Shown here: piece after piece, positions 9,769-64,000 of the stretch | Numbering within the stretch: the stretch's first letter is position 1 | How the letters are laid out: every line of letters starts with the position of its first letter | Source of the DNA: Bispira polyomma | Taxonomy: Eukaryota | Reading direction: 5' to 3' | Length of the DNA: 64,000 bases | Assembly (NCBI GenBank): GCA_965649765.1 | Contig: OZ287753.1 | Coordinates: forward strand, 55,552,001 to 55,616,000 | Made by a program: the position numbers and the translations under genes | The notes under the pieces: model-generated | Told to the model about the DNA's origin: nothing | The model's database searches: none | Seen by the model: only the letters and a program-made list of their open reading frames with translations

Positions 9769-10445
9769 CCTTATTTATGGGAATAAGCTATAGTATGTTA
9801 CCATTCTGTTTAATAGAGATTTCAGCGAGGAACTCAAATATATAGTCAGATTTCAAGTATTTTTTAATGTACACAACACTACAACAACTCCTATTTTAAA
9901 AGTATTGTGAGCTTAAGTTTGAGACGTTTGATAAATGCAAGGCCAGTGACCATAGCCAACTGACTTTACAGGTTATATGTATTTATCACAGTATTTACAC
10001 AGCTGTAAACAGTTTAAGTAACGTAGCTTTGAATGAGTTACAATAAGAAAAAAAAATAGGTAAAATAACAAAGTATTTGGTGTTATCTTAATTATAAACT
10101 TGCTTTTTTTAAATGGTTGTTTTAATTTGGTGTCATTTTAATTAGTCGTTTTACTACTTTACTTCCCCCCCAAAAAAGTGAGAAAAAATACCCGGGGCTT
10201 CCCTTATACTCGGATCTTATCCAAAAGTTAATGCAGCCTTTCTTAGCCTATTCCCTATAATTACATTCTGAACGGTTAAATTTACACTGCCTCAAAAATA
10301 TTTCTCTAGCTATACACTTGACTTATACAAATATTTTGTAAAACAAAAAGAAAATATTAAAAACAACTACATATGTAAATAGATGTCTTTCTAGCATTGT
10401 AACACATCCAATGTGAATCCCTCTATAATCACAATCTACTAATAG

Positions 10446-10672
10446 AAATTAACTCAATATAACAATAGTCATTTTAATTGGTCATCCAAACCACAATGCA
10501 CTATCCTTCCATAAGCACAGTCAGGCAATGGAAATTATCTCAATACTGCAATAATCATTTTAATTGGTCATCCAAGACACAATGCGTCTTTCTTCTGTAA
10601 GCCTAATCTAGCAATGGCAATTAACTCTCAATACTGCAATATTCATTATAATTGGTCATTCAAGCCACACTA
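10446..10672. repeat. ~85-bp tandem repeat, ~3 copies
   Basis: ctcaata..(a/g)caata.tcatt(t/a)taattggtcat(c/t)caa...aca(a/c)t repeated three times. Confidence 0.85.
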
Positions 10673-21909: not shown

Positions 21910-23181
21910 ATGGGACGCACCAAGAAGACACCTTCGGACATGGCAAAGAAAGCCATGAGACAGAGTAGCAAGAGTACGGGGAAAGGACGACCACCAAGAA
22001 AAACAGTTCAAGTGGAACAGGTATCAGACAGTATACTTAACAGTCTTAATCTGCCATGTGATCAACCCGACAATTCACAGTTTGCGTCACCAATACTCGC
22101 AACGGGTACATAGGCCCAGGCTACAGCCACAGCTCATTTAATCTCGGACTGTCCAGAGCAATTCGGCCAACGGGATTTCCCTGTTTCCACTGCACCGACG
22201 GCAAGTAGTGAGATGACCCTCATGATGTCGGTACTTCAACGGCTGGAGGAGTCAAACTCACAGATTACTCGGAGGCTTAACCAGATGGAAGCCCATGAAG
22301 CTTCAAAGGTGGCAACCCACGTGCAGCCGAGCCAGATCCAACCTACAGGGCCATTCACCGGTAACCAGGGCGGGACACTCAACACAGTCTCTGTGACTGG
22401 GGTGAATCTTCAGTTTCCCAATCCGCTCCAACCACCCAGCATGGAACAGCAGCAATATACCAAGGACGGGATTGTTCCAACAGTGGAAACTTTGAAGTCA
22501 TTACCTGATGTGCAGTCGATGGTGAATCAACGTCTCGCACAATATGAGGCGCAAGCCCAGTGCGCCCTAGCCCAAGGTAAGCGACAGAAATCAGGGCGTT
22601 TTAATAACACGGACATCGGGTCAGCAGAACCTAAGTTTAGATGGGCCAATGAAGGCTGGGTCGGCGGGGCGACTCGCAAATGGCCTATGTATGACGACTT
22701 GTCGCTCCCCCAGTGGGCTGCAGGACAATTAGCAAATGCCCTTCAGGTCTCAGATCCGGTAGTTATGAAGGCGATGGTAGAGCAAGTGATATTCTCTCTT
22801 CGGGATGCCGTCTCCCTACCATTGGAAGTTGTGCGCACTGCGTGGTCCATGAGTATGCATGAGATCGAAGCTGGGCGCTTGGGATGGAGTGACACAACTC
22901 AATGGGCACTAAATCATATTAATGCCTCCCAGACAGCGATGGCGAATGGAAACACGGCTTTCTCATCCAATTCTACCTCCAACTCCCATAATTCAAGTCA
23001 AGGGCGAACAATTTGCAAGCTATTCAATGCAGGCAAATTTTCTCATCGTGCTGACCACGGCCAATACCGCCATCAATGTTGGCATTGTTCCACAGTTCTC
23101 AAGAAAGAAGCAACACATCCGGAATTCAAATGTTATCGGGCGAATTCGACAAAACAGGCAGAAGGAGCAGTTAATAATTAG
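21910..23181 (+). pseudogene. gag: Gag-like ORF1 of YR retrotransposon, one in-frame stop (22111-22113)
   Basis: ORFs 21853 and 22213 share a frame; C-terminal Cys/His cluster CKLFN...HQCWHC...HPEFKC typical of DIRS-order Gag; homologous to 59966-61200. Confidence 0.85.
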
Positions 23182-23211
23182 GACATTTGTCGACGACCAA
23201 GAAACGGGACA

Positions 23212-25743
23212 ATGGAAGAGCATGTTAAGGGCAGTAATATTAGAAAGAATTTAGGAACTTTTAGAGATATCAATAGTGATTATTTAAGCTATAATAGTTT
23301 AACAGTTTCTAGTATGTATGATAAAACATTGAACCAAGAAAGGTTCTCAGAAACACTTGCCTATGTAGAGACACCTCTAATAGATGTTGGAAATTATATT
23401 GACTTTAATGAACAATGTAAGGCAGTTGATAATGCTTTGAATGTGGACATACCTATCAGCAATGATAATTGTGCTTGTGAAACCCATAATGTACCCTTTC
23501 AGATATATGAAGCTGCCAACAATGTTCCTAAGGTAGAACTGGTTACTGCTGAAGTATATGTCATGAATTGGTCATACTGTTATGAGAAATTTGGGGACAG
23601 TTTACCTGTATTGTATATTAACACGGGCAGGTCTGAATTGGATGGGTTTTACATTCAAAAATATGATTATGTGGAAAAATTTTGTAGTTATAGTAAATGC
23701 CACTCACTGCCTGAGGGCTCAATTTGGGTCATTGACCAGGGGAAAATGCAGATAGCAGTAACCCCTATACAGGAGAGCATTGTGCATGAAAACATTACAT
23801 ATTATGATTCAACTGAGAAATCACAAGCTCAGAATGTCTATAGAAATTTCAGTCAGGATCAAAAATTTAGGGAAAAATTTGGACACGGATATGTACAATA
23901 TATGGAAAATGTAATTGATGAGCTAATTAAGAGTAGTGAACGAGTTGAGGAGAGATTAGGTGGTAATGTTTCACCAGAACAACACATTACTAACTTAACT
24001 AACACATGTAATCTTGGAAACAAGGTAAAAAATCTCATGGCGTCGTCCGACTTATCCGACCAAATTTTTCAGGCAATGGGGCAAGAAATTGTCCCAAGGG
24101 TTCAGAGCAGTAAGAATGTTGAATTTCCTCCGAAAACTAAGGGTGTTTTAGCAATTTCTGATACAAAATTTGAATTTATTGGTCCAGACAGATTACCAGT
24201 GCACATTACAACGGTGATCAAATAGTAGAGATAGCTGAAGTTATCAGAGATTCTGGATGCCCCAACTATAGGGGCATCCAACGCATCGCACTTAAATCTG
24301 GTCTTAAAATTGAAGGCTGGGAAAAGGCACTGGAAGATTACCCCGACAAACTTTTGTTACAATATCTGAAATTTGGTTTCCCGTTATCTTTTACTCAACC
24401 AAATACACTTAAGGTTAAGGAAACCAAGAATCACTATTCTGCCCTTCAACATAAAACAGCAGTAAGGGATTACATCAATAAAAAGAAAGCCAATGGAGCC
24501 ATGTTAGGCCCAGTAAGCACTGTAAAGAGTGAGCATTACCACTGTTCTCCACTGTTAACGCGTCCAAAAGATTCGGATAAGCGAAGGGTCATTCTGGACT
24601 TGTCATTTCCACATGGTGAGTCAGTAAACGATAACGTTCAGAAATTTCAGAGTGGACCCAGTCGACGCACTAAAATTCGGTATAAATTTGGAAGGCGAAA
24701 AGTACATAGATCCTGCGGTAGCGTTCGGCTGGCTCCACGGCTCAGCAGCGTTTCAGCGTTGTTCTGATGTAATAGCTTTTAGAATGAGAAAGTTAGGCCA
24801 TAAATGTTTCTGTTACATCGACGATTACATATGTGTCTCAGAAAAAGTAGATTCAGAAAAAGCATTTGCTGATTTATATAACATCGTTGAATCCCTAGGA
24901 CTTCCCATCAATCCAGATAAGCTTTCAAAACCTGGCAAGCAGGTCACTTGTCTTGGAATAGACATAGACATCGCTAAAGGTATTATTAGCATTACTGAAG
25001 AAAAAATTAAGGAAACATATGACATATGTGTAGAAATGTTGAAGAAACAGTGGATTTCTAGGTCAAAATTTCAGTCTGTTTTGGGCAGGCTATTATACAT
25101 TCATAAATGCATCAAGCCAGCGCGTATTTTTATAAATAGGTTAATAATGGCTTTTAGAAATAACGGCAATGCTAAACGTTTCAAAATTTCTGAAGAAATT
25201 AAGGCAGATCTAGGCTGGTTTGTTCGTTTTCTTCCCAACTATAACGGGATTACTTATATTGAACCCATTGTCGATACAGTAAATAATGAAGTTTTTATAG
25301 ACGCCTGCTTAACAGGCTTAGGGGGCGTGTACATGAACCAGGTATATGCATCACCCCTGTATAATATTTATGGACAAAAATTGACGATTGTACACATAGA
25401 AATGCTTAACATACTGCTGGCCATTCGAGTATGGGGCGTTCAGTGGGCGCATAGGAAGGTAATTATGAACTGCGACAACATGGCTGTGGTTTTGGTTGTC
25501 GGCAGTGACAAAACTAAGGACAAATTTTTAGCACTTTGTTTGAGAAATATATGGCTCTTAACAGCAACTTATGACATTACACTTGAGGTTAGGCATATCA
25601 TGGGGAAGAAGAATTGTACAGCTGACACATTATCAAGATTATATTCTGAGATTCCGAGAGTTAGGGAAATTGAAATATTAAGGCAAAACTACATATGGCA
25701 TAACGTGCCCATACACTTCTTTAATGTGAACTTTGACGTGTGA
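23212..25743 (+). pseudogene. pol: RT/RNase H ORF of YR retrotransposon (frameshift ~24210, internal deletion ~24640)
   Basis: SPLLTRPK..RVILDLS, YIDD, RNase H motifs FIDAC/IEMLN/CDN/ADTLSR; the KxD..AFR segment present in element 2 is missing. Confidence 0.92.
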
Positions 25744-25749
25744 TTTCAG

Positions 25750-26572
25750 GTTCCACAAAGATTACACAGACTTACATGGAATCAGCCTGGAATAGACTAA
25801 ATACAGCTTTACGTCCAAAACATTAAATGCTTATACAAACCAGTTTAAGACATTTGTGGCATTTACGTGCTTTGCAGGTATCCATACTATGAACACTCAT
25901 GTTGTTATTGCATTTCTAGAATATTTAGTGCAAAATGGAAACTCACCTGGAGCTGTGAACAATTATGTAGCACAGGCTTGTGTCATATTACAAGATCCAA
26001 TTCTTTTTAGATCCATCTTTCTGCTGTCATTCTTTGGGTTTCTAGCAATATCTAATGTGGCCCCTCACTCTAGAGCAAAATTTGATTCATCACGACACTT
26101 ATTACGACAGGATGTAATTTTTGGCCCACCAGGAGCTCACATAATTATTAAATGGGCCAAGAACTTGCAAACCAGAACAGAAGCCCATGTTATACAAATT
26201 CCTGAGCTTACAAATCGGGTAGTTTGTCCAGTCACAGCACTCAAGGAGCTTTTAAGTACAAGAGATCTGAACCCTAATTCACCCCTGTTTGTTACCAAAG
26301 ATTCACTATACCACCCAGTTATCAAAACTCATGTACGTTTTGCTTTATCCTCAGTTTTGGAACATATTGGTTTTCCAACAAGGGCACATAGTTTCTACAC
26401 TTTTAGAAGGTTTGGGGCCACCTTTGCTTTTAATAATAATGTTTCACTCCAAAATATAATGGCTCATGGACTGTGGAGATCATCAGCAGTTTGGACATAT
26501 TTGCATAAAACTTCACAGGCTGCCTCCACAGTTCCTCTAACCTTTGCCTCTGCTATCCCTCCTCACTTTTAG
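25750..26572 (+). pseudogene. Tyrosine recombinase (frameshift ~25820, internal deletion ~25968, catalytic substitutions)
   Basis: FFGFLAISN (expected LRxSN), KWAK, CPV, YTFRR (expected HSxR), HGLW, VWTY. Confidence 0.9.
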
Positions 26573-28700: not shown

Positions 28701-30299
28701 TGTAGTAAAGGAATATAATATGGAACATCTCAGAACAGGATCTAGCAGGAGGGGGTAGTTCTAACAGGGGCAAAATACAGATAAGAATGATAATATGTTG
28801 TTTATCCTGTACTGATGTGTTTGTCTATCAAGTTTAATTTCGTGACTGAAGAAACAACAGAACCGGTGGCAAGTGACTTATTAGGGTAATTAATCTTCTC
28901 CCTTAGAGTTACTCTCTTACTGTTATTTTATTTATAGCCAACTGTGATGAAGAATGAGCAAAAAACTATATTTTAGGAGCTTGAGTACAACAGCTATTAC
29001 AAGTCTTTACTTATTTATTTTTTTCTTACCTGTCATTCTTATCAATGTGAAAAAAACACTGACTGTTTCTTTCCTGCAGCTTAATCCTCAACAACTTGTG
29101 AAAGTAATTTATAACCCATGTAACAATGTGTGTGTTTTTGTGATGAATTAGTCCCTGCTGCCTTTGTGTAATCATTTAATAACTCCAGGGTTACAGGGAA
29201 GGGCTGTTTAACTGATCGTTTTAGTGTCTCTCTCGTTTTTCTGTCTTGATGATGCCTCAATGGAAATATATTTATTCAAGTTTTGTCCTGACTTTAAATC
29301 TGGAAACGAGCCGTGAAATGAAAAGTAGTGAAAAAGAAGCTTTAAAAACATCATTAAAATTCTAAAATAATAAAAATTGAAAAATGAGATTTCATAGAGT
29401 AAGCTCCGAATTCTCCAAAGAATTACACTGAGAACATGGGAAATGACATTTGGGTGCATTTAATTAATTATTTAACATATAACAAACTAATATATGTCTT
29501 ACAAGTAATGGAAATTGCTATTCAACATGCCTGTTAAGCCACTATTAAGTTTATCGATTTTTAGACTTCACTGCTAATATTACTGCTAATAATTAATATA
29601 ACACATATTACTAATGAATATCAGAGGGTACTTTAATTAAACATTCATTATTCCACATAAGATATTGGTGGTGAAAGGATAAAGAGGTAGGTGTTGAATC
29701 TCAAGATTTTCAAGATACTTACAAAAAAAAGGATAACACAAGCAAGGCTGATAATAGAATGAGAGGGAGAGAGATAGAGAGAGTTCCCATAGATTACACT
29801 CGATAACAACTTTATACTCTCAGGCCTAAAGACAAACAACTCATTTGTATCCTCTGACAACAAGCAGAGGGCTACAGAGAGGTTACAGGTAACATGGCCA
29901 CTACATCAGAGTAGAGGGCAAATATAAACCTTTCACTAACCAATCCTATGGCAGCCACAAAGTGTGTCATGTGTGAATGAAATTATTATAAAAGACAGTA
30001 TGTGTATTATACTAGTTTATTACTAGTTTAGTTTAGTACCCAGGCAGTTTATTACTAGTTGATTTTCATACCAATACTAGGTCCATAGTTCTGCATATTC
30101 AATTACTTAGCAGACGCCTACATGTCATTAGCAGACCTGCAATGTTATTTATGAATCTTGCCATAAAACTTCAGGACATAAATATTTAATCCGTACCACT
30201 TTTCAGCACCATCAAAGATGCAACCAGAACACTATATTTAATCTGTAAGGCTTTGCAGTCCCATCGTAACCAGAATACTATAGCCAGCAAAAAACTCTG

Positions 30300-30985
30300 A
30301 TGTAATACCCATTTGTCTTTTCTCTGATGTTGAAAAAGATTATTGTTGCAGTATACATACTTGTTCATACTGTGTAAACTGGTGGGCGACAAATAAAGAA
30401 ATTCCCATGAAGTGTATCAATGATGATTTATTCTTTTTGTGTTGTTTTTGATTGTGAAGATGAGGATTGCACTATACTTGTTCATACTATGTACACTAGT
30501 GGACGATAATTTTCACAAACCTCTCATGAAATGCATCAATAAGAATTGGATGTACCATTTTTGTCTTGTTGTTGTTTTTTCAGATGGTAAATGTGACGAG
30601 TACAGTATAATGGAATCCCAATTTAATCAATCAATTTTGATTTATTTACCTATGTTGTTTCCTTTTTCAGATGGTAAAGATGATGATGATATATGTTCAT
30701 ACTACTTTCTTTATGCCTGTTTTTCCATATGGTAAAGATGAATATTACAGTTTACTTGTTCATGCTAGACTCCCTCCCCCCCCCCTCCACCCATTAAATG
30801 CATCAATGTTGATTTGTTAACCATTTTTTGTACCTGTAATTTTTCCAGATGGTAAAGATTATTATTACAGTTTACTTGTTCATGCTAGAACCACCCATAA
30901 AATGTATCAATGCAGATTTCTTTGCACACATTCTTTTACATGTTCTTTGTTCCAGATGGTAAAGATGATGATTACAGTGGTGATA
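30300..30985 (+). repeat. Degenerate tandem array of units containing the GPCR 3' splice site and first codons of the exon
   Basis: (y)n-cag|atggtaaa at 30584, 30671, 30849 and the real 30956; cat|atggtaaag at 30729; decayed units at ~30325 and ~30450. Confidence 0.85.
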
Positions 30986-31462
30986 ATCTATGGTCTGTGC
31001 TGGCTCCCTTTGCACACCATCACCATTATTGGAGATGTTCACTACAGCATTTGGAACTACAAGTACATCCAGCCCATCTGGATAGGGAGCCACTGGCTGG
31101 CTATGAGTAACTGCTGCTACAACCCGATGGTCTACTGTTGGATGAACTCCCGCTTTAGGAACGGCTTTAAACATGTGCTGAGGTTCTGTCCGGCCAGGCG
31201 GGAAGACAACAATGGAGACTCGGTCATTTATCGATCCAAAAACAAGTACACATGCGTGTACACCACGAAAGAGAACAGCGTGGACATGCGCAGTGGGAAA
31301 AATCGATACCGCGCCTTTCAGTCACGTGGTGCATTTGCTGAGCCTGGCTCTTCGCACAGTACTAGTAGTATGGATGGGAATGGGGACAACAAAACAGCCA
31401 ATGGATATAGGAACTCATTCAAACCTTTACAGATACCCGAGTCTTATCAAAATAACTGTTGA
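30956..31462 (+). CDS. Terminal coding exon (TM6, TM7, helix 8, C-tail) of a class A neuropeptide GPCR, luqin/RYamide/tachykinin-receptor-like
   Basis: Acceptor tgttctttgttccag|ATG (phase 0); MVKMMITVVIIYGLCWLPLH (CWxP), HWLAMSNCCYNPMVYCWMNSRFRNGF (NPxxY); Ser/Thr-rich tail; stop at 31462. Confidence 0.93.
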   Translation: MVKMMITVVIIYGLCWLPLHTITIIGDVHYSIWNYKYIQPIWIGSHWLAMSNCCYNPMVYCWMNSRFRNGFKHVLRFCPARREDNNGDSVIYRSKNKYTCVYTTKENSVDMRSGKNRYRAFQSRGAFAEPGSSHSTSSMDGNGDNKTANGYRNSFKPLQIPESYQNNC

Positions 31463-31738
31463 GACTGAGTTTGTGAAGTGTGAAAATACTTGAAATATGG
31501 ATTATGTATATCTAGGCAGTATTTCTTGCTTGTTTTTGTTTATATTTTGTTTTTTGCTCAGATTTATTTACTTTCCTGATTGAAATCAAATATATGGATA
31601 CAAGAGGATCCATCATGCATTAGTATTTGACAAAAGAAAGATTTGTTTTCTTCAAGAATGTCCCTTAATGATTATATATTGTGTATAAATTAGACCACAT
31701 AACTTTGTTGCTATCAGTGATGTAATTTCAACATATAA

Positions 31739-31744
31739 AATAAA
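31739..31744 (+). terminator. Candidate polyadenylation signal of the GPCR gene
   Basis: First AATAAA noted after the stop, followed by AT/T-rich sequence; AT-rich background weakens the call. Confidence 0.35.
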
Positions 31745-32265
31745 CTATATATATATATATTATTTTGTCTTATTCAGACAAATGCACACTTTAAAATGAT
31801 CATATATGAATATAAGCAACTTCCATCATTTGATTGTTTAATGGAAATATCTTTAAAAGCTACTTGATCTGTTAAACTTGTCTGCTGCACAAGACGTATT
31901 TCTAGATGGACTAATTTAGATGCAAACAGCAACCAGAGCCAAACAATGAAAAGGTAATTTGATGCAGAAAGTGGAGAGGTCTAGAAAAAGGGTTCTGATT
32001 ACTTCCTAAGTGAAATGATATATGGTATCGGGTAGCCATTAGCACCCTTTGGGTAGAGCTGGTGTGTAGTTAAACAGGAACCAACAGTGCAGATTGACCT
32101 TGCCTCTTTAATGGTGTTTTTGTTGTATGGGATGTGTCTGAAGAAAGTATTTCATTTAACAACACTATCTCAAACAATGACACATTTAGTTTTCTGAATG
32201 GATTACATGTCTAAGGCTTTATAGTAATCTTTTTGGCCAAGTAAATAACCCGGGTGGATGCATCA

Positions 32266-39334: not shown

Positions 39335-40390
39335 ACGTGCCTTATTGATGTGAGGCATCTTTCAAAGCTCATCAACAGAATAAATTAATCAATAGAGAAA
39401 GCCAAAAACCATAGTTTGGTTGTTATAGCCCAGTCACACCTACACGTGATGAAGTCCCCCAACGTAGCAAAGCAATATAATTTAAAAAAAGGTAGTTAAG
39501 TCTTAAAGTGACGTCATATTCTCGAAGTTGCAGCCGATTGTGACGTTTTTTGTGACTATGTTAGTACTTATACGCACAAAGCAGGGGCAAAAATCGATTA
39601 CTTTACTGGTAGGATACCATTACCTTCTAATACGTAGATCTACTATACGGCTAGTTACTGGTGCGTTCTGTTACCTTCTGCTACTTAGTAAAACGTTTCT
39701 TGACTAACGGAGACGAGTGGAGAAGAACTTACTACTTACTACTACTTACTGATACTTACTACTAAGTTAAGCTTCTTATACAAACGAATGGAGACGTCCT
39801 TGAGGAACGAAGACCTCTCTGAAGATTATTTCAAACAGTTTGAAATAATCGTGGTAGCAGGCCAAACGGAGACGTTTTGGAAACGATATCATCTGTTAAC
39901 CAACGTCCGAAAATGAACGCACCAGGAATCCCACATTACCTTCTACTATCTCTCTACCAGGTTTCTAAACAATTGAAAACGTCACACACACGTAGCTCCA
40001 GCATAATCGTGGTAGCAGACCAAACGGAGACGTTTCGGGAACGATATCATCTGTTAACCAACGTCCAAAAACGAACGCACCAGGGATCTGACATTACCTT
40101 CTGCTATCTCTCTACTAGGTTTCTAAACAATTGAAAACGTCACACACACGTAGCTCCAGCATATGTAGGTGTGACTGGTCTATAGGGAAAATGTGGGGTG
40201 TACAGGTGTGGGGGTGTACAGGAGGGGACTAATTGGGATAAGCAAGTTTAAAGAGATAAGTTTTTTCCTGAACCCAGAAAGTGTTTCTAGTGATCTAAGC
40301 TGAGCTCAAGTGGGAGACTTTTCCATAACACGGGGACATTGATTAAGAAAGCTTCAGATCCAGCCCTCTTGGTGGGTTTAACTTTATCTT
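39335..40390 (-). mobile_element. Degenerate L2-like 3' fragment interrupted by a MITE
   Basis: 39335-39423 and 40185-40390 are collinear with 28235-28500. Confidence 0.7.
39426..40182. mobile_element. Non-autonomous TIR DNA transposon (Harbinger-like termini) with an internal ~158-bp tandem duplication
   Basis: tagcccagtcacacctaca / tgtaggtgtgactggtcta (1 mismatch), TA on both flanks; 39846-40002 repeated at 40003-40162. Confidence 0.85.
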
Positions 40391-40885: not shown

Positions 40886-42663
40886 GTCTGTTTGGTGACA
40901 CTGCATAAACCACTCCTAGAACATTAAATAATGTTTGCTGTAAAAAAATGTTTACCCACTCAATTCTCCAGTGGCCAGATGAAGTTTCATCTGATATAAA
41001 TGGATTTAGCCAAAATCATTGACCTCGTATAATCTGTTTACATTAGGGAAGAGGGGTGATATAATTCCATTCACAAGCTGTCAGCCTCGTTTACCCTATA
41101 GAGTGAGATGTGGGAAAAACATTAGATCATGTATCTGGGTCAGCAGTTGTCCTTTAAATAGAAATACTTATAAACTATCAGCTACTTCAAATCAATGCAA
41201 CTTCAATGTTCTACCAGTAGCAATACTGTGGAAATTTAATAAGCGGACCAGAGGTTAGCTTTGCATATTCTGTTTGGATTTAATTTGACTTAATTTGAAA
41301 AACTTTCCCATATAAGAATTTATATTAAAACCCCTAAAATATGTGTTTGAACAAACAAAAAGGTATTGGCTATGTTAGGTTTACTATTGATAATGTTGTC
41401 AATAAAGGAAGGTAATAAACTGTATGTAATTGTATATATGTGTAAAACAAAGAAACAAATCTGTATCTCTTATAAACTATGGTAGCAACTTTACCACATG
41501 AAATTGGAAACATTTTATAAAATTGTTTTTCTGTCCTTCTGTATGTCTGCTCCTGACATTTGAATTTCCTTATACATCCAGGTTCACCCCTCTGCTGTGT
41601 TTATGATTAAACCAAAACAAATGACAAAGAAACGACAACAATAGTTTCATTAATGTATATCTGATGTACAAGGCCAGTGCTTCATGTGGATAGATGTTGT
41701 TGTATTGCTGGCATTTTTTATTATTTAAAAAAAAAATAAAAAATGACAAGAGGTAATTTTTTTAAGCCAAATAGAAGACACATGTACAGGAAAACATGTT
41801 TCTCAGCTTCACGTCGTTGCCAAGAGTAACAAAGTTAATACAAAAAGTCATAGGTATCAAAACCTGTCACAGCAGGCGAAAATTGGGTTAACAGCAAGAT
41901 GCAACAGGTGACATAATAATTCACAGAACTAAAAACAGTCATAAAGTGACTGATTCACATATGAGATCTTTGAACTAATCGGAGAGTATTTTAAAAGTCC
42001 AGCTTTGTAGAAGCATAATAATACAACAAAACTTATTTAAAAAACGTACAAAGTATTCATACAAATTAATATAAATTACAAGGCAATTTTGTGGAGGATT
42101 GTCTCACAAATGTCCAAGAATAGCTAAGAGTGATCCATGGTTAGTGACAATAACAATTACTGACGATTCCGTATGGAAATACACAAATAGTAAACAATAC
42201 CTGTTGAAGCAGATCATGAAAAATGCTATTACCATGCCTATATGCTTTGTTAGACTCCTCTACTGTACCATAATATTTTGTAATAAGGTCGTCGTTTTTG
42301 CCGATATCTGTACATTTATTTATTACTATTTTTGATATTTCTACCCCTTTTACATTGATTTTTGTCATATCTGCACATTTATTTATTACTATTTATGATT
42401 TTTCTACCCCTTTTACATTGATTCTTGTCTCATTTTGTTGTTCTATATTGTAAAATTACCAATATTATTATTGTCTCATCTTTTGTTGCTACATGTTGGT
42501 GTGGTTGTACTTAGCTTAAGGCTATAGTGTGGGGTGCTAGGGTGCCTGTGAGTCGCCCACGGGACGAAGAATTGTGCGGTGAGTTGTAGGGACAAGCTTT
42601 CTGAGGCTCCCCACTGTTGAGTTCAGTTTAAGGGCTTCTTCTTTTTCTACAACCTCACTAGGC

Positions 42664-45600
42664 ATGTTTCTGCTTCGGGTTGTCCTTTTTTCAGCACTGT
42701 TTGCTGTGGCTATGGCTCATAGGTATGAGTTGTTGCATCACAGTGTTGCTCATACATCAGCAACCTCTTTGGCTAAAGTTGCAAAAAAATTTTTATACAC
42801 TTGTTGTTGTCGTAAATTTCCTACTACCATTAATGGAAGAGGTCTTGTCTTGTTACTTTTACTCACCGGAGATGTGTCCCTTAACCCTGGTCCTGTCATG
42901 CTCGGGGTGTTAAATGCTAGATCCGTGAGGAACAAGGGTCCACTCCTTGCAGATATTGTGACATCGCACGACCTCGACTTCCTTTGTGTTACAGAGACCC
43001 ATGTCCGTCTATCTGATACGGATAGCTTCCTACGGTCTGTTACTCCTCCAGATTTTGTGTTTCCTCAAACGCCTCGTCCCTCACGTATTGGTGGCGGTGT
43101 TGGTTTCTTCATCAGAGCCTCCTACAAACCACATAAAATAGATTCTCCTGTCTATCAGTCCTTTGAAAATATGGTGGTGTCAATTGGGCTTCATGGCCGC
43201 TCACTGTTGCTTGCCTGCGTCTATCGCCCCCCAGGATCATGTACCTGTAATTTTTTAGAAGAATTTATGTCTTTTGTTGGTTTCTTGTCTTCCATTAACA
43301 GTTCATATCATATCTGTGGTGACTTTAACATCCATGTTGATGCACCAGTTGGCGACGGTCATAAATTTATGACCTTTCTTGATTCATGCGATTTAAAACA
43401 GTCAGTTAGACAACCTACCCATCTGCATGGTCACATTCTGGACCTTATTTTATCTCCTTGTGATCAGGATGCTATTGTGGATGTCAAAGTCTGTGATTTC
43501 ATATCGGATCATGCATTAGTCAAATGCTCAATTGCCTCTCCCCCACAGGTGGCTCACATACCTAACACAGTGCATTATAGGAGGTACCACCGTATTAACA
43601 TGTCTGACCTCCGTACTGACCTTGAGAGTACTTCCTTTATTAAGTCACCTGCCAATTCTGTAGCCAAACTTTATGAACAATACATACATGACTTGGGTGA
43701 TGTACTAGATAAGCATGCACCACTTGTATCCAGAATGTCAAAGAAAGATTCTGTGCATTGGCTCTCTGATTCTTACCGACGGGCAAAATCTCTCAGGTGC
43801 CAATATGAAAGAACTTGGCGAAGGGCCGAGAATCCATTAAATAGAAGTCGACTACGTCGCCAGATTGCTCGGTGCAATGTACTTGTTAATGAGGATAAGT
43901 CGATTTATTACAGCAAGCTTATCTCTGACAACAGTCACAACTCCAGGAAGCTGTGGCACGAACTGCGCAAGACCCTTAATATGGATACCAATGTGGCACT
44001 CCCGTCCCATGATTCGGATAAATCACTAGCTGATAAGTTTGCTTCCTTTTTTTTGGACAAAATTAAGAGAATTAGAGATACTTTTGTTGTCTCTGGAACA
44101 AAAATTGATGTTCATCCTCTTTCTGATCCCCCAGAAATTACTGCCTTTACCAGAGTCTCCGAAGATGATGTTAGTAAAATAATAAGTAACTCGCCTACAA
44201 AATCCTGCATGTTGGATCCATGGCCAACATCTCTTATTAAAGAATGTAGTGATATATTACTACCATCCATTACAAAGCTTGTAAACTGCTCACTTACGGA
44301 GGGACATGTACCTGATGGTTTTAAAACAGCTGTGGTTACTCCTCTTATTAAGAAGGCTTCTCTTCCAGTTGATGACCTGAAGAATTATCGCCCTGTATCT
44401 GGTCTTAGTTTTATATCAAAACTGGTTGAACGCGTGGTTGCTAGGCAACTGTTAGATCACATCTTTGTCCACGACTTAGACAACCCATACCAGTCTGCGT
44501 ATAAAACTGGTCATTCGACTGAGACAGCTCTCCTGTCTATAAAAAATGAAGTTCACCTATCTTTGTCAAGAGGGGAACCTACTGCCCTGGTATTGCTTGA
44601 CCTCTCTGCTGCATTTGACACCATTGATCATTCCACGCTTCTCAGTTGTCTTCAGACTTGGTTTGGAGTTAGGGGCTCTGTTCTTAAATGGTTCACTTCC
44701 TACTTAACTGATCGTTATCAGTCGATAAAAATTGGCTCTACTCTGTCCGATCTTTGTAAACTCTTGTTTGGTGTTCCTCAAGGTTCTGTTTTGGGCCCTC
44801 TGTTGTTCTCATTATACACTTCCCCTCTTAGATTGGTTATTGGCAAATACACAGGTATAAAGTTTCATTTTTATGCAGATGATACCCAAATTTATGTGCA
44901 CCTATCCCATAAAAACACATCCACTGCCTTAGAACAGTTGAACAGGTGCCTTGACGATGTGAAAGAGTGGATGTCAACTGGTAAACTTAAACTTAATCCC
45001 GATAAAACTGAGTTCATAATCTTTGGCTCAAAACAACAGAGGGATAAGTTGAAAGCATTGTTCCCAGTTGACATCTTGGGTAGCCCTTGCAGTCCAGCTG
45101 ATTCTGTCAAGAACCTGGGTGTATGGTTTGACTCTGACTTTTCTTTCTCTAAACACATTCAGAGTGTCTGCAAAAGCTGTTTTATGCAACTCCGTGACTT
45201 TAGACGTGTCAGACGGTTTCTCACTTATGATGCCTCTATACTTGTAGCCAATGCTTTTGTTAGTAGTAGACTGGATTACTGCAATTCACTTTTCAGGAGT
45301 CTCTCAAAGTTTAATTTACGCAAATTACAATGCATTCAAAATAGTGCAGCTAGAATTGTGTCAAACACCAGTCGATACACTAGTATAACTCCTGTTCTGA
45401 AGAAATTGCATTGGCTCCCTGTTGAACAGCGTTCAGTGTTTAAGACAGCTACACTTGTTTATAAGTTTCTCCACACTGGGTTTCCAAAGTATTTTGCCCC
45501 ATATCTTTCCACTTACAGTAGTTCCTACAATACCCGACGCAGTCAGAGTGGTAGTAATTTCCTTGTTGTTCCGAAGTTCCACCCATCTACTCAAAAGTCT

Positions 45601-45744
45601 GTTAAACAGTTTGGTCACAGCTTTGCTTTTGATGCTCCCATTGTTTGGAATGGTCTCCCTGATGTGATTCGTTCTTCCCCCTCACTAGCCAGTTTTAGAA
45701 AGAAGCTTAAAACCCACTTGTACACTAAAGCATATCCACCTTAG
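42664..45744 (+). CDS. LINE ORF2-type protein: leader + APE endonuclease + reverse transcriptase (1026 aa, uninterrupted)
   Basis: LNARS, VTETH, YRPP, GDFN, SDH (APE); LDLSAAFDT, GVPQGSVLGP, YADD (RT); LHWLP C-terminal motif of L2/CR1 group. Confidence 0.97.
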   Translation: MFLLRVVLFSALFAVAMAHRYELLHHSVAHTSATSLAKVAKKFLYTCCCRKFPTTINGRGLVLLLLLTGDVSLNPGPVMLGVLNARSVRNKGPLLADIVTSHDLDFLCVTETHVRLSDTDSFLRSVTPPDFVFPQTPRPSRIGGGVGFFIRASYKPHKIDSPVYQSFENMVVSIGLHGRSLLLACVYRPPGSCTCNFLEEFMSFVGFLSSINSSYHICGDFNIHVDAPVGDGHKFMTFLDSCDLKQSVRQPTHLHGHILDLILSPCDQDAIVDVKVCDFISDHALVKCSIASPPQVAHIPNTVHYRRYHRINMSDLRTDLESTSFIKSPANSVAKLYEQYIHDLGDVLDKHAPLVSRMSKKDSVHWLSDSYRRAKSLRCQYERTWRRAENPLNRSRLRRQIARCNVLVNEDKSIYYSKLISDNSHNSRKLWHELRKTLNMDTNVALPSHDSDKSLADKFASFFLDKIKRIRDTFVVSGTKIDVHPLSDPPEITAFTRVSEDDVSKIISNSPTKSCMLDPWPTSLIKECSDILLPSITKLVNCSLTEGHVPDGFKTAVVTPLIKKASLPVDDLKNYRPVSGLSFISKLVERVVARQLLDHIFVHDLDNPYQSAYKTGHSTETALLSIKNEVHLSLSRGEPTALVLLDLSAAFDTIDHSTLLSCLQTWFGVRGSVLKWFTSYLTDRYQSIKIGSTLSDLCKLLFGVPQGSVLGPLLFSLYTSPLRLVIGKYTGIKFHFYADDTQIYVHLSHKNTSTALEQLNRCLDDVKEWMSTGKLKLNPDKTEFIIFGSKQQRDKLKALFPVDILGSPCSPADSVKNLGVWFDSDFSFSKHIQSVCKSCFMQLRDFRRVRRFLTYDASILVANAFVSSRLDYCNSLFRSLSKFNLRKLQCIQNSAARIVSNTSRYTSITPVLKKLHWLPVEQRSVFKTATLVYKFLHTGFPKYFAPYLSTYSSSYNTRRSQSGSNFLVVPKFHPSTQKSVKQFGHSFAFDAPIVWNGLPDVIRSSPSLASFRKKLKTHLYTKAYPP
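42841..42894 (+). other. 2A-like (StopGo) peptide variant GLVLLLLLTGDVSLNPG|P
   Basis: Matches GD(V/I)ExNPGP except E to S; lies directly before the APE domain, as known for 2A-bearing non-LTR elements. Confidence 0.75.
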
Positions 45745-58948: not shown

Positions 58949-59965
58949 TCGTCTCACATTCATTATAAAGAACAAATAAATCACCCATTTGCTATAGCAT
59001 ATACATACAGAGCACAATGAAAGCTATCATCTACAAGGTTAGTGCTTTATATGGATAGATGCTGCTATAATAATTAACAGAATTTAAGACAGTCACAAAG
59101 TGACTGATTCACATTGGAGATCTTAGAACGATTGTCATACCTGTATACCGATGGTAATGTTCTTCTTATATAGAAGTGTTTAACAAGTACAAGAAGAAAC
59201 ACCTTGATACTGCAGTATCCTGAATTGGGCTATTTCTACAAAGCACACTGTTTTCAGTATAAACCAGACATGCATACATCCATGTCATTGTTGTCAGCAT
59301 ATACTTAATACCCAGAAATAAAAGTTGAAAGTAAAGCACATGGTGAATGGATTATTTTCATCATTTTTGACCACTTGAAAGAAATGAGTATCTAGTAATA
59401 GAGAAAAATTGCTTCAAATCAGCAGTAGCTGTTTAAGATCTTAATTTTCTCTTTTCATTTCGCTTTGTGAGTGCTATATTTAGGTTTCAAACAAAAGCAT
59501 GTGTTCATTTTCGCAAGTAGCAGTCACTGCTGGTAGGGCATGGCCTTTCAGTCGAAGGCACAATATCTCACCCTTACCTTACATCAAGTTTTGTAGGGCA
59601 CAATATAATACGCTTACTTTAATTTACTTAACAAGTTGTGTACAAGGCTGTACCCAATCAGGGAAAGCCTACAGAGCCAATGGCAAATTGTTTACTGCAG
59701 GGTTTTTATCGCCTTTAGCATTGTGGGGTCATAATTCAGCTAGAAGCATAAGAGCTAGCATCTAAAAAGTTGTTGAACTTCATGGAAAACAGCAGCCATC
59801 TTGAATGATTTATATTTTAGAAAGAAGTTCAACGTTTTTAGTGCAACCTGTTTTAGTTTTTTATAGTTAATTTTATATATATACACATTGTGGGATACTT
59901 GACACACATGAAAAGTATTGGAAAAGTTTATACGTGTGGAAACTAACAAATATCAGTGCAATATC

Positions 59966-61215
59966 ATGGGGAGAGGGAAAAAACGTCAAGTCACACAGCA
60001 AGGAGCATCTTGTTCCAGATGTAACATCATACATGCCAGACCAGTAGGCAATAGATGTACAAGGGAGCTCGACTCACCACTCAACAACACAGAAAGCCAA
60101 CTGACAGATGGGGACAATACTAGCGTCGTCTCGGAAGGGCAAAGAACAACGGCTGTAAGTAGTGACAATGTTTACCAGTCATTATTCGAGAGACAAAGTG
60201 TTATGAGGGCGACTATACTAAAATCAGTTACTAAATTAGAGAGTGACGTCTCAGGACTCAGCTAGAGAAGCCAAGGCCTTGCCACAGAAAAACACAGAAG
60301 CTACACCTCTCGCTAGTTCACTAATTCATTCTAGCTATGACACACAAACAAGACCAACTCCCACTTCCAAAATGCTCAAAACAACACTTCATAATGGCCA
60401 CATTCATGACCCCGTCACGACACAACAGGCACAAACTCAGGCAGTATCAAACACAGCCCTACTTCCCACAACAAGGCATTACGGGATCCCTGAAGCACAG
60501 CCAATCAACCTTCCACAGGCGAGCATCAACCATACTACATACATGTCGCATACAGCTGAACCAGCAGTACCCCGCACATATGACGCCATACCTCCATCCA
60601 TGGACATCCTGAGACATTCTACCTTAATACAGAATGAAGTCAGTCAATGACTGGCTCAATATGAGGCCTGGGCCACAGAAAACACCTTACAGGGTGAGCT
60701 TATGTCTAAGAAAAAGTCAGACAGGTTTAACGTTTCTGAGGTATGCACATCAGATCCAACACTTCGCTGGCCCAACAAGGGGTGCCTAGCAGGAGTAGGC
60801 AGAAAATGCATATTATACGACGACTTATCAGATGCTCAATTCACCGCTGGGCAAATCCAAAACACCCTCGAAACAAAACATCCTGTTATATCTGGTGCTA
60901 TGCTGAAAGAACTAACCAACACACTTAAAGATTCAGCCAACATTTCACGGCATGAAAAGAGGAGCATACTCCAGCAACATGAACGACGTCGAAGAGGAAC
61001 GACTGACTTGGCCAGACGATACAAAATGGACCATGAACTGGTTGTCATATTCGCAGGCACTAACATCCAACTCCACTTCCAACTCCACGAGCACGTAATC
61101 GGGAAATGGAAACAACAAGAAGAAAATGCCATGCAGGAATGTCCAACGCAACCAATGTCAACATAAAGCTGACCACGAATCTGCTACGATGTTGTTCCGT
61201 CACATATGAGCGAAT
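59966..61215 (+). pseudogene. gag: Gag-like ORF of element 2 (disrupted), N-terminal CxxCxxxH..C motif
   Basis: CSRCNIIHARPVGNRC; collinear peptide similarity to 21910-23181. Confidence 0.8.
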
Positions 61216-61974
61216 TGCTATAAGTTTAACAAACGAGCTAACCCACACCCAGAGATGTAGTGTTACAAACTACACGGAAAGCCTGATTCTACAACTTCGA
61301 CAACTGCAAAAATGGCAACAGTGACCTCTGACAGAATACACAAACAGGCTCAACATATGCACAAAGGTAGTAGTGAAAATAATTACAGGGTCGACAATAC
61401 CAAAGTAAATTTTGAAAAAAATTATTATAGGAATGATTGTGAGTATAATTTTTCAGGACAAAATCATGTAGAACTGTACAGAGACACGAGTTTGTATATT
61501 CATAGTGATAATCAGAAGTTGAATAGTAGTTACACTAATAGTGAGGCATGCATTACTAACAATAACACAAGTAGACCTGCATTAGAGCATTATGATAGTA
61601 ATGTGGACATGATGAACAGTAATGTAAATGTCAGTTCAAGGAGTAATAACCTTGACCCGGGAACTGTATACTAATGTGTTGATATACCTGAGAGTGGTAA
61701 CTGTATATGTCATACCATTGATCTATAAACTAGTATGTGTAAGACAATTAATGGTGACAGCATATATTAGGGGCATGGAAGCTCCACATATCTCAGGTAT
61801 ATACTACAAGAGACAGACAGACACAACAAATACATTACATAGGCTACAAGAAAAAATTCAACATATCTGGCCTGTAACAGAGACTACAACATTGACTGTA
61901 CAATTGCAGAAGACCCATCATCACAGACAACCAAAACGCATACACGCACAAAAATAAGGAGCACACATTACTAC

Positions 61975-63464
61975 ATGGAGCTCATTGACAACATATGTAA
62001 AAGACATGCAAGACAACAAGCATATAAGGATAAAAGTCCTAAAATGAATAAACACGCATGCACAGAACATATAACAGCATACGAACACACAGAACATGAG
62101 GTTTTAAACAGTACACCAACTATTGAACCAGACACTGTAGTCATAGATGACGCACAAGCAGTACTGAATAGTTACATAAATGACGAGAGAGAGGACGAGA
62201 TATGGACAATAGACAGTATATCAGACAAACGAACAGATGACAACGAGACAGATTATGGGTTTAAACCAAATGAGAACAAATTTGAATTCATTGGCCCCGA
62301 TAGGGATGCAGTAATACTTGATGATTATAACAAATTAATTAAAGTCGCAGAAATCATAAAAGAAACAGGCGTACCGAATTACAAAAAAGCGAGAATCCCA
62401 ATAAAGAGCTACCTTAACATACCTAATTGGAGGAAATATTTAACAAATTACCCTGATAAAACACTGGTAGAATATTTACAATATGGTTTCCCTATATCAC
62501 TATATGATAGAAACAGGGTTAACGTCCAGGCAGTGGATAATCACCATTATGCCAAAATTTTCCCAGACAAGATAAATAGTTATTTTGACACAGAGGTTAA
62601 AATTGGGGGGCCATTCTTGGTCTTATAAATAGTAACATACACAAAAAGTGTCACTTCTCCCCCTTACTGACGCGTCCAAAAGACAATAATAAATGCAGAT
62701 TAATACTGAACCCTTCACACCCGGCAGGTAAATCAGTAAATGACTGTACCATTAAAAACAGTTATGATGGTACACCTTTCAAATTATCATTACCAACAAT
62801 TGACCAAATTACAACATACTTGAAGACACTAAGCAGTAAAGGAATGTTAGCAAAGGTCGATATCGCCCACGCATTCCGAAATTTAAAGATCAACCCTTAA
62901 GACTGCCTTAAGCTAGGTTAGAAATGGGAGAATAATCATTACCTTGATTTGAGCATGACGTTCGGATTAACGCACGGAACGGCCATATTTATAAAGGCCT
63001 CCGACGCAGTAACCTGTATAATGAAAGAACATGGTTATAAAGAAGAGAATTATATAGACGACTTTATTATCTGCGAAACAGAAGATAAGACCACCTTAGT
63101 CTACAAATTTTTACAAAAAGTGTTGCATGATTTAGTCTCCCACTTAAAAAACAGAAACTTGTCCCCCCCAGAAAGCGTGTAACTTGCATGGGCATTACAA
63201 TAGATGTTAACCACAAAACACTAGAAATAGATGATGACAAATTAGTTTCCATTTATGGAACATGTACGGAATTCAAAAATTTAAAGCAAACTACTAAACA
63301 CAAATATCAATCACCTCTAGGGAAACTACTTTACGTACACATGTATTAAACCTGATTGAGTGTTCATGCATAGAATGTTAACATTGCTACGAGAATCCAG
63401 AAGTAATACCAGAATTAAACTCACAGAAGAGTTTCATAAAGACCTTAAATGGTTTTTAACTTTT
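61975..63464 (+). pseudogene. pol: RT ORF of element 2 (disrupted)
   Basis: YIDD at ~63051; collinear with 24150-25230. Confidence 0.88.
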
Positions 63465-63647: not shown

Positions 63648-63873
63648 AATTACAATACCTTGTAACTAGCTAAAACTAGCTAAAAGTAAAAACTAATACA
63701 ACTAACATTTTTTGTTTAATTACACTGCCTGACTACATTTATTGTAAGCCTGTAACAAATTACAATACCTTGTAACTAGCTAAAAGTAGCTAAAAGTAAA
63801 AACTAACACAGCTAACATTTTTTTGTTTAATCACACAGCCTGACAGGATTTATTGTAAGCCTGTAACAAATTA
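63648..63873. repeat. ~111-bp tandem duplication
   Basis: aattacaataccttgtaactagctaaaa...atttattgtaagcctgtaaca twice. Confidence 0.92.
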
Positions 63874-64000
63874 TAATGCAATGCAAAGGAAGTGATGCAA
63901 GAACAAACAGTTAAATGTGATCACAATAACACTAAGACAATGTTCTGTTAGTGTCTTGAACATGTGAAACTCTCACAATTACAAAAACTTAAATAAAATT

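Follow-up and report, generated by a model that had tools for sequence, protein, structure and literature searches.

The window, the whole stretch of 64,000 nucleotides of Bispira polyomma DNA that was analysed, contains the terminal coding exon of a G protein-coupled receptor (GPCR) preceded by a tandem array of copies of that exon's own 3′ splice junction. The exon belongs to a rhodopsin-family receptor whose best database matches come from Capitella and Lingula, the named ones among them being mostly RYamide receptors; judged by these matches, the animal is a probable annelid. Assigned from these best matches, the host gene is probably a RYamide/luqin-type GPCR, where "luqin-type" denotes the lophotrochozoan group. 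The gene comprises two coding exons. A tblastn search returned no upstream receptor exon inside the window, and a genome search placed this exon about 4.4 kb before the window's start, with a product roughly 60% identical to a Lingula protein. It ends in the residues SKRK followed by GT, which sets the intervening intron, about 35 kb long, in phase 0. Homology to receptors begins at position 30956, in phase with the upstream donor, so that the functional exon edge coincides with the end unit of the array. A paralog located 217 kb upstream has an intron at the same site, and no repeat touches its exon edge (one paralog was examined). Another neuropeptide-type receptor (L296; G000:C6:4360033-4363257, positions 793-1553) carries an array of its own, built from a different unit, at the homologous TM6 acceptor.

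Mobile elements and shorter repeats surround the receptor exon (Table 1). One frame of the intronic retrotransposon is without a Pfam match; judged by its motifs, it presumably resembles a tyrosine recombinase, and the element is likely of the DIRS/Ngaro type. The LINE-like element lies downstream of the receptor.

Table 1. Coordinates of the array, the receptor exon and neighbouring features, in positions of the window.
Feature	Position	Strand	Basis
Tandem repeats, 2-3 copies, period 63-158 nt	762-1018, 10417-10669, 39845-40163, 42295-42429, 63648-63877		
Intronic retrotransposon of the receptor gene in sense orientation, with gag-like frame and reverse transcriptase (RT)	22114..26572	+	Pfam RVT_1
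Frame of this retrotransposon	25796..26572		no Pfam match
U1, most decayed copy, CTG for CAG, exon-like from 30327, 5′ edge uncertain	30300..30352	+	repeat search, alignment; weak alone (23/43)
U2, TTG for CAG, exon-like from 30451	30353..30473	+	alignment, probe
U3, intact CAG, exon-like from 30584, predicted stop after 8 codons	30474..30606	+	alignment, translation
U4, intact CAG, exon-like from 30671, predicted stop after 49 codons	30607..30689	+	alignment, translation
U5, short, CAT for CAG, exon-like from 30729	30690..30751	+	alignment, probe
U6, intact CAG, exon-like from 30849, predicted stop after 37 codons, ATTAAA at 30793	30752..30871	+	alignment, translation
Intronic portion of the template unit, with the functional acceptor AG (30954-30955, trinucleotide CAG) and pyrimidine tract of the phase-0 intron	30872..30955	+	homolog alignment
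Terminal exon, coding part, of the RYamide/luqin-type GPCR: TM6, TM7 and tail, 168 codons and stop	30956..31462	+	Pfam 7tm_1 E 5e-10; top homologs
First AATAAA past the stop codon, candidate polyadenylation signal	31739..31744	+	motif only
LINE-like element, unbroken 1053-codon frame, endonuclease and RT domains	42583..45744	+	
Second, apparently broken element, frames resembling the 22114-26572 element	about 59900..63300	+	

A repeat search recovers a 32-nt junction unit in seven copies across 30312-30972, the last being the true acceptor, with successive spacings of 124, 133, 87, 58, 120 and 107 nt. The full unit measures 62-133 nt and joins the end of the intron to the exon's first 23 bases. 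The initial annotation had described about six reiterated junctions ahead of the real acceptor, more decayed with distance, three of them retaining an intact CAG, and this description holds: six spare copies are found at spacings of 58-133 nt, and the CAGs of U3, U4 and U6 are read directly from the bases, where the annotation had placed them. Identity to the real exon over the 23 exon bases falls from near to far in the series 21, 21, 19, 19, 18 and 14. Ungapped, the most distal copy keeps 14 of 23 matches, and 18 with one gap. A 43-nt junction probe finds 28-32 matches in five copies, against maxima elsewhere in the window of 24 on the forward and 26 on the reverse strand; U1 reaches 23/43, not above background on that probe alone, and its membership leans on spacing and the gapped match. 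The units are about 50-78% alike when aligned, and Tandem Repeats Finder detects the last 1.8 units only. Retention of the AG in three of the six spare copies compares with 4.3 expected under drift (P = 0.23).

Use of an intact copy as acceptor would truncate the receptor. The three phase-0 peptides predicted in the initial annotation are correct, the phase being upheld by the upstream exon, and so are the truncations: entry at U3, U4 or U6 would yield 290, 331 or 319 aa, versus 450 aa for the full protein (start Met assumed). On our own rough acceptor score, these copies reach 5.8, 6.1 and 5.3 and the real site 5.8, so that acceptor choice is left unexplained by local sequence. A YTRAY branch-like motif is present in U4 and U6 and absent at the real acceptor. 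A donor-like GT occurs 3 nt into U3, U4, U5 and U6, with scores (5.3, 4.3, 4.3 and 4.3) that place them between the lowest tenth and the lowest third of the donors sampled. The ATTAAA within U6 could terminate a short U3 or U4 transcript, although we estimate from base composition that chance alone would put roughly one hexamer of this kind in the stretch. Premature stops in a last exon have no downstream junction that would mark the mRNA for decay.

Control exons were drawn from the same genome in five Pfam families (SNF transporters, myosin, ligand-gated channels, chaperonin and kinesin), with the 30 best loci of each. We kept 130 of these 150 loci and dropped 17 long, intronless or broken matches and three duplicate genes. 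Splice sites were called by a simple score of our own together with an open frame, rather than from RNA, which left 124 acceptors and 109 donors above the cut. Kinase loci are mostly long single-exon matches and were therefore used solely as flank background. Many of the intronless kinase frames (L020-L044) are of near-identical length, about 411-419 codons, and are scattered over chromosomes, perhaps through carriage by a mobile element.

Among these controls, the junction forms the end unit of a repeat extending into the intron at 20/124 acceptors and 15/109 donors (16/109 if one site, likely called one unit late, is counted); three of the positives are single copies 295-580 nt away rather than strict tandems, and paralogous exons among them are not fully independent, though their unit lengths differ. 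Repeats extending in the opposite direction were found at 0/124 acceptors and 0/109 donors. There is no preference for acceptors over donors (16% vs 14-15%). The same end-unit statistic stands at 3.2-3.6% for flank positions, at 1.9% in the 64-kb window, and at 1.2-1.5% beside mostly single-exon GPCR and kinase loci. Per-locus permutation with 100,000 draws gives an expectation of 4.0 acceptors and 3.8 donors, with maxima of 14 and 13. Restricted to young repeats, with 85% identity or more, the counts are 11/124 and 12/109, about a 6-fold excess, and at 90% identity acceptors fall to 4/124, a 3-fold excess (P = 0.04). At 16%, junctions have the same total repeat cover as introns, and the excess is in end units. 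At least one copied junction is present in 30 of the 105 exons with both ends called. The contribution of the present analysis is the measurement of this excess, which is 4-6-fold at splice junctions, with no difference between acceptors and donors, and less pronounced at stop codons.

Stop codons are copied in 2/74 cases by script and in 3/73 by eye, the latter count having moved L272 to the donor class and added L243 and L285, which the script missed by its 8-nt margin. The by-eye figure differs from that for donors (16/109, P = 0.026). In nearly the same genes, terminal acceptors at 5/41 and stops at 2/49 do not differ significantly (P = 0.24). L243 and L285 are single tandem duplications, of 232 and 110 nt, of the coding end of a mitochondrial carrier into the 3′-UTR.

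Myosins, kinesins and chaperonins are among the genes that carry the control arrays, and across 26 acceptor arrays the AG is kept in 88 of 94 upstream copies (94%). The larger ones include a myosin exon with 15/15 AG copies, a transporter exon with 14-20 and a myosin donor with 30 GT copies. Selective loss of the AG was not seen in the control copies, where identity is 0.95 at the AG versus 0.88-0.92 at the next exon bases, in a comparison whose detection favours junction matches. Unit lengths are in frame in 5 of 18 tandem acceptor arrays, the chance level (L075 and L096 are excluded, their copies lying at a distance of 295-580 nt). One myosin exon is present on three contigs (L079, L080 and L081, donor at oriented position 1746) with the same 53-nt donor array, each unit composed of 48 exon bases and 5 intron bases; the copies number 12, 24 and 17, respectively, and copy number has therefore diverged after gene duplication. 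Some donor units (at L095, L092 and L079) include about 5-10 intron bases and end just past the GT motif, and others include 25-90.

We read the receptor array, with a probability of about 0.85, as a "mirage" minisatellite: a neutral product of tandem duplication whose copies the spliceosome would pass over. A neutral minisatellite had been the fallback of the initial annotation and is the best reading here. The array may have begun with a single duplication whose breakpoints fell 23 nt inside the exon and about 85-110 nt inside the intron. The real exon would then remain as the last unit with its protein unaltered, and the spare copy in the intron would be unseen by selection. Further copies could arise by slippage or unequal exchange and subsequently drift. 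In exon-definition models, the acceptor closest to the remaining exon is chosen. The winning acceptor would thus be the one closest to the exon body and its polyadenylation signal, and nearly all mRNA would be expected to use 30956, as we infer from these models together with the lancelet and CBS cases described below. The intact decoys of chaperonins, kinesins and myosins likewise argue that decoys are mostly silent.

That the array is real, as first described, is confirmed. Tandem repeats are in general prone to mis-assembly, but the modest likeness between these copies and the one-piece contigs that three of three DNA runs give across 29600-31800, with zero differences, make an assembly artefact a negligible prospect; the runs come from one study with at most two samples, possibly the assembly's own source, and carry little information on polymorphism. 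The initial annotation had offered truncated, possibly dominant-negative isoforms as one of two readings. In a related alternative, the intact copies would serve as regulated alternative acceptors, and a receptor cut after TM5 would dampen the full one. Three copies do combine a CAG with a good pyrimidine tract and join in phase 0, and the ATTAAA could close a short U3 or U4 transcript. However, the tails are unlike between copies and random-looking, decay follows distance, AG loss is drift-like, the paralog examined is without an array, and 16% of control acceptors, from unrelated genes, show the same structure; the dominant-negative proposal is unsupported, and regulated use of the copies is very unlikely. 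A further alternative, which we consider highly improbable, is that decoys are used at some rate and rescued via a 3-nt exon or re-splicing, adding one in-frame Met. The intact copies read CAG-ATG-GTAAA, with the donor-like GT just inside, but these bases are just the exon's codons for Met-Val-Lys and recur in the real exon, the donor scores are low, and most control arrays are tolerated without such a device. The neutral mirage also has evidence to accommodate. Its intact copies score like the real site, two of them with a branch-like motif that the real site lacks, and stops in last-exon copies would escape junction-marked decay, which is established knowledge assumed to hold in this animal. 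Moreover, the AG is kept in three of six copies versus 94% in controls, and mild selection against decoys could give the same result. Overall, the interpretation proposed in the initial annotation is partly supported.

The origin of the junction excess is a separate question. Splice-like sequence alone was rejected as its cause on the end-unit counts of splice-like flank sites, which are 30/819 sense and 19/705 antisense for acceptor-like and 23/313 and 8/190 for donor-like sites. An explanation by age or detection bias alone was likewise rejected, the excess persisting at 80-85% identity; a residual detection bias is, in our judgement, improbable.

In our judgement the most likely source of the excess is a preference of duplication breaks for exon DNA or its immediate neighbourhood, with wholly exonic duplications being purged, a reading we place slightly above even odds. 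Human meiotic break repair reportedly produces side-by-side duplications (PMC7615360), and DNA repair could provide a route for junction duplications here, provided that breaks favour the G+C-richer exons (0.48 vs 0.36 in flanks). A plain break bias of this kind fits less well with the rarity of stop-codon-spanning duplicates given above. A more tentative proposal has splice junctions as the target of the duplications, with roughly one in six copied into its own intron at 4-6 times the flank rate and stop codons seldom copied. A splicing- or transcription-linked germline lesion might steer them there, with the receptor array as one product; we regard this as possible but doubtful. The crowding of array ends in the first 75 exon bases (2-3.5 per kb, vs 0.2-0.65 per kb in pre-acceptor intron) speaks for such a cause, as do the few stop-codon copies and the ligand-gated channel exons, presumably neural, with 2/36 against 34/197 in the rest (P = 0.08). 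On the other hand, the contrast with stops is not significant when terminal acceptors from nearly the same genes are compared, repeats that span stops could also be thinned by selection on 3′-UTRs, and the G+C difference leaves room for a sequence-driven break bias. GPCR acceptors carry arrays in 2/11 cases, from which neural genes appear not to be spared.

Were a splicing-linked cause true, it would indicate a splicing-coupled germline mutation process, of which the receptor array would be one old instance, and would supply thousands of natural decoy arrays for genome-wide tests of exon definition and intron gain. Intron gain through tandem duplication is treated in PMC3443670. By itself the receptor locus matters little, being one more mirage of an already known kind. 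The initial annotation had seen in it a natural test of acceptor choice, which is fair, but the locus is not special in this respect, since the genome offers cleaner cases with 14-15 AG-keeping copies. The junction-excess count matters more: in the literature searched, published mirages are single-gene lancelet cases, and neither a genome-wide mirage count nor an annelid case was found in that literature, most subscription papers being outside its reach. With the excess measured, two questions become testable on one genome and one RNA set: what starts duplications at the edges of exons, and how splicing skips as many as 15-20 near-identical acceptors or 30 donors. For gene annotation there is a warning, as exon calls made by first-AG rules will go wrong in genomes of this kind.

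Tandem copies of intron-exon borders, many of them with AG or GT, are described as "mirages" in lancelet globin genes, with Adh3 cited as well; the report presents them as unstable in length and regularly spliced, of unclear origin and possibly a general phenomenon (PMC3087553). Further lancelet mirages are reported in troponin C and PGBD5, with splicing said to be undisturbed (PMC3902484). In these cases (BflGb6, BflGb9, Adh3, troponin C and PGBD5), as in the receptor array, the border is copied, the real exon closes the series, and the splice dinucleotide survives in many copies though not in all. In BflGb6 the array lies on the acceptor side and comprises either 6 or 3 units, 150-160 bp long and 81-100% alike, whereas the receptor units are shorter and uneven and its copies older. 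The receptor array, in a probable annelid, lies at a terminal exon, unlike the lancelet mirages, for which length polymorphism and normal splicing are reported. In human CBS, the 844ins68 allele duplicates an intron/exon junction and likewise presents two like acceptors. The distal of the two identical acceptors is selected (PMC1802585), and mostly normal mRNA is reported (PMC1334203). That allele holds one recent 68-bp copy, with G runs steering the choice, in contrast to the six old copies of the receptor. The 37-bp VNTR of F7 intron 7 contains functional pseudo-donors that are described as normally silent (PMC1557585); its first unit spans the exon-intron border, like the receptor array, but on the donor rather than the acceptor side. 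The receptor array shares with the mirages a head-to-tail unit that spans the border, a real exon edge that serves as the end unit, and partial retention of the AG.
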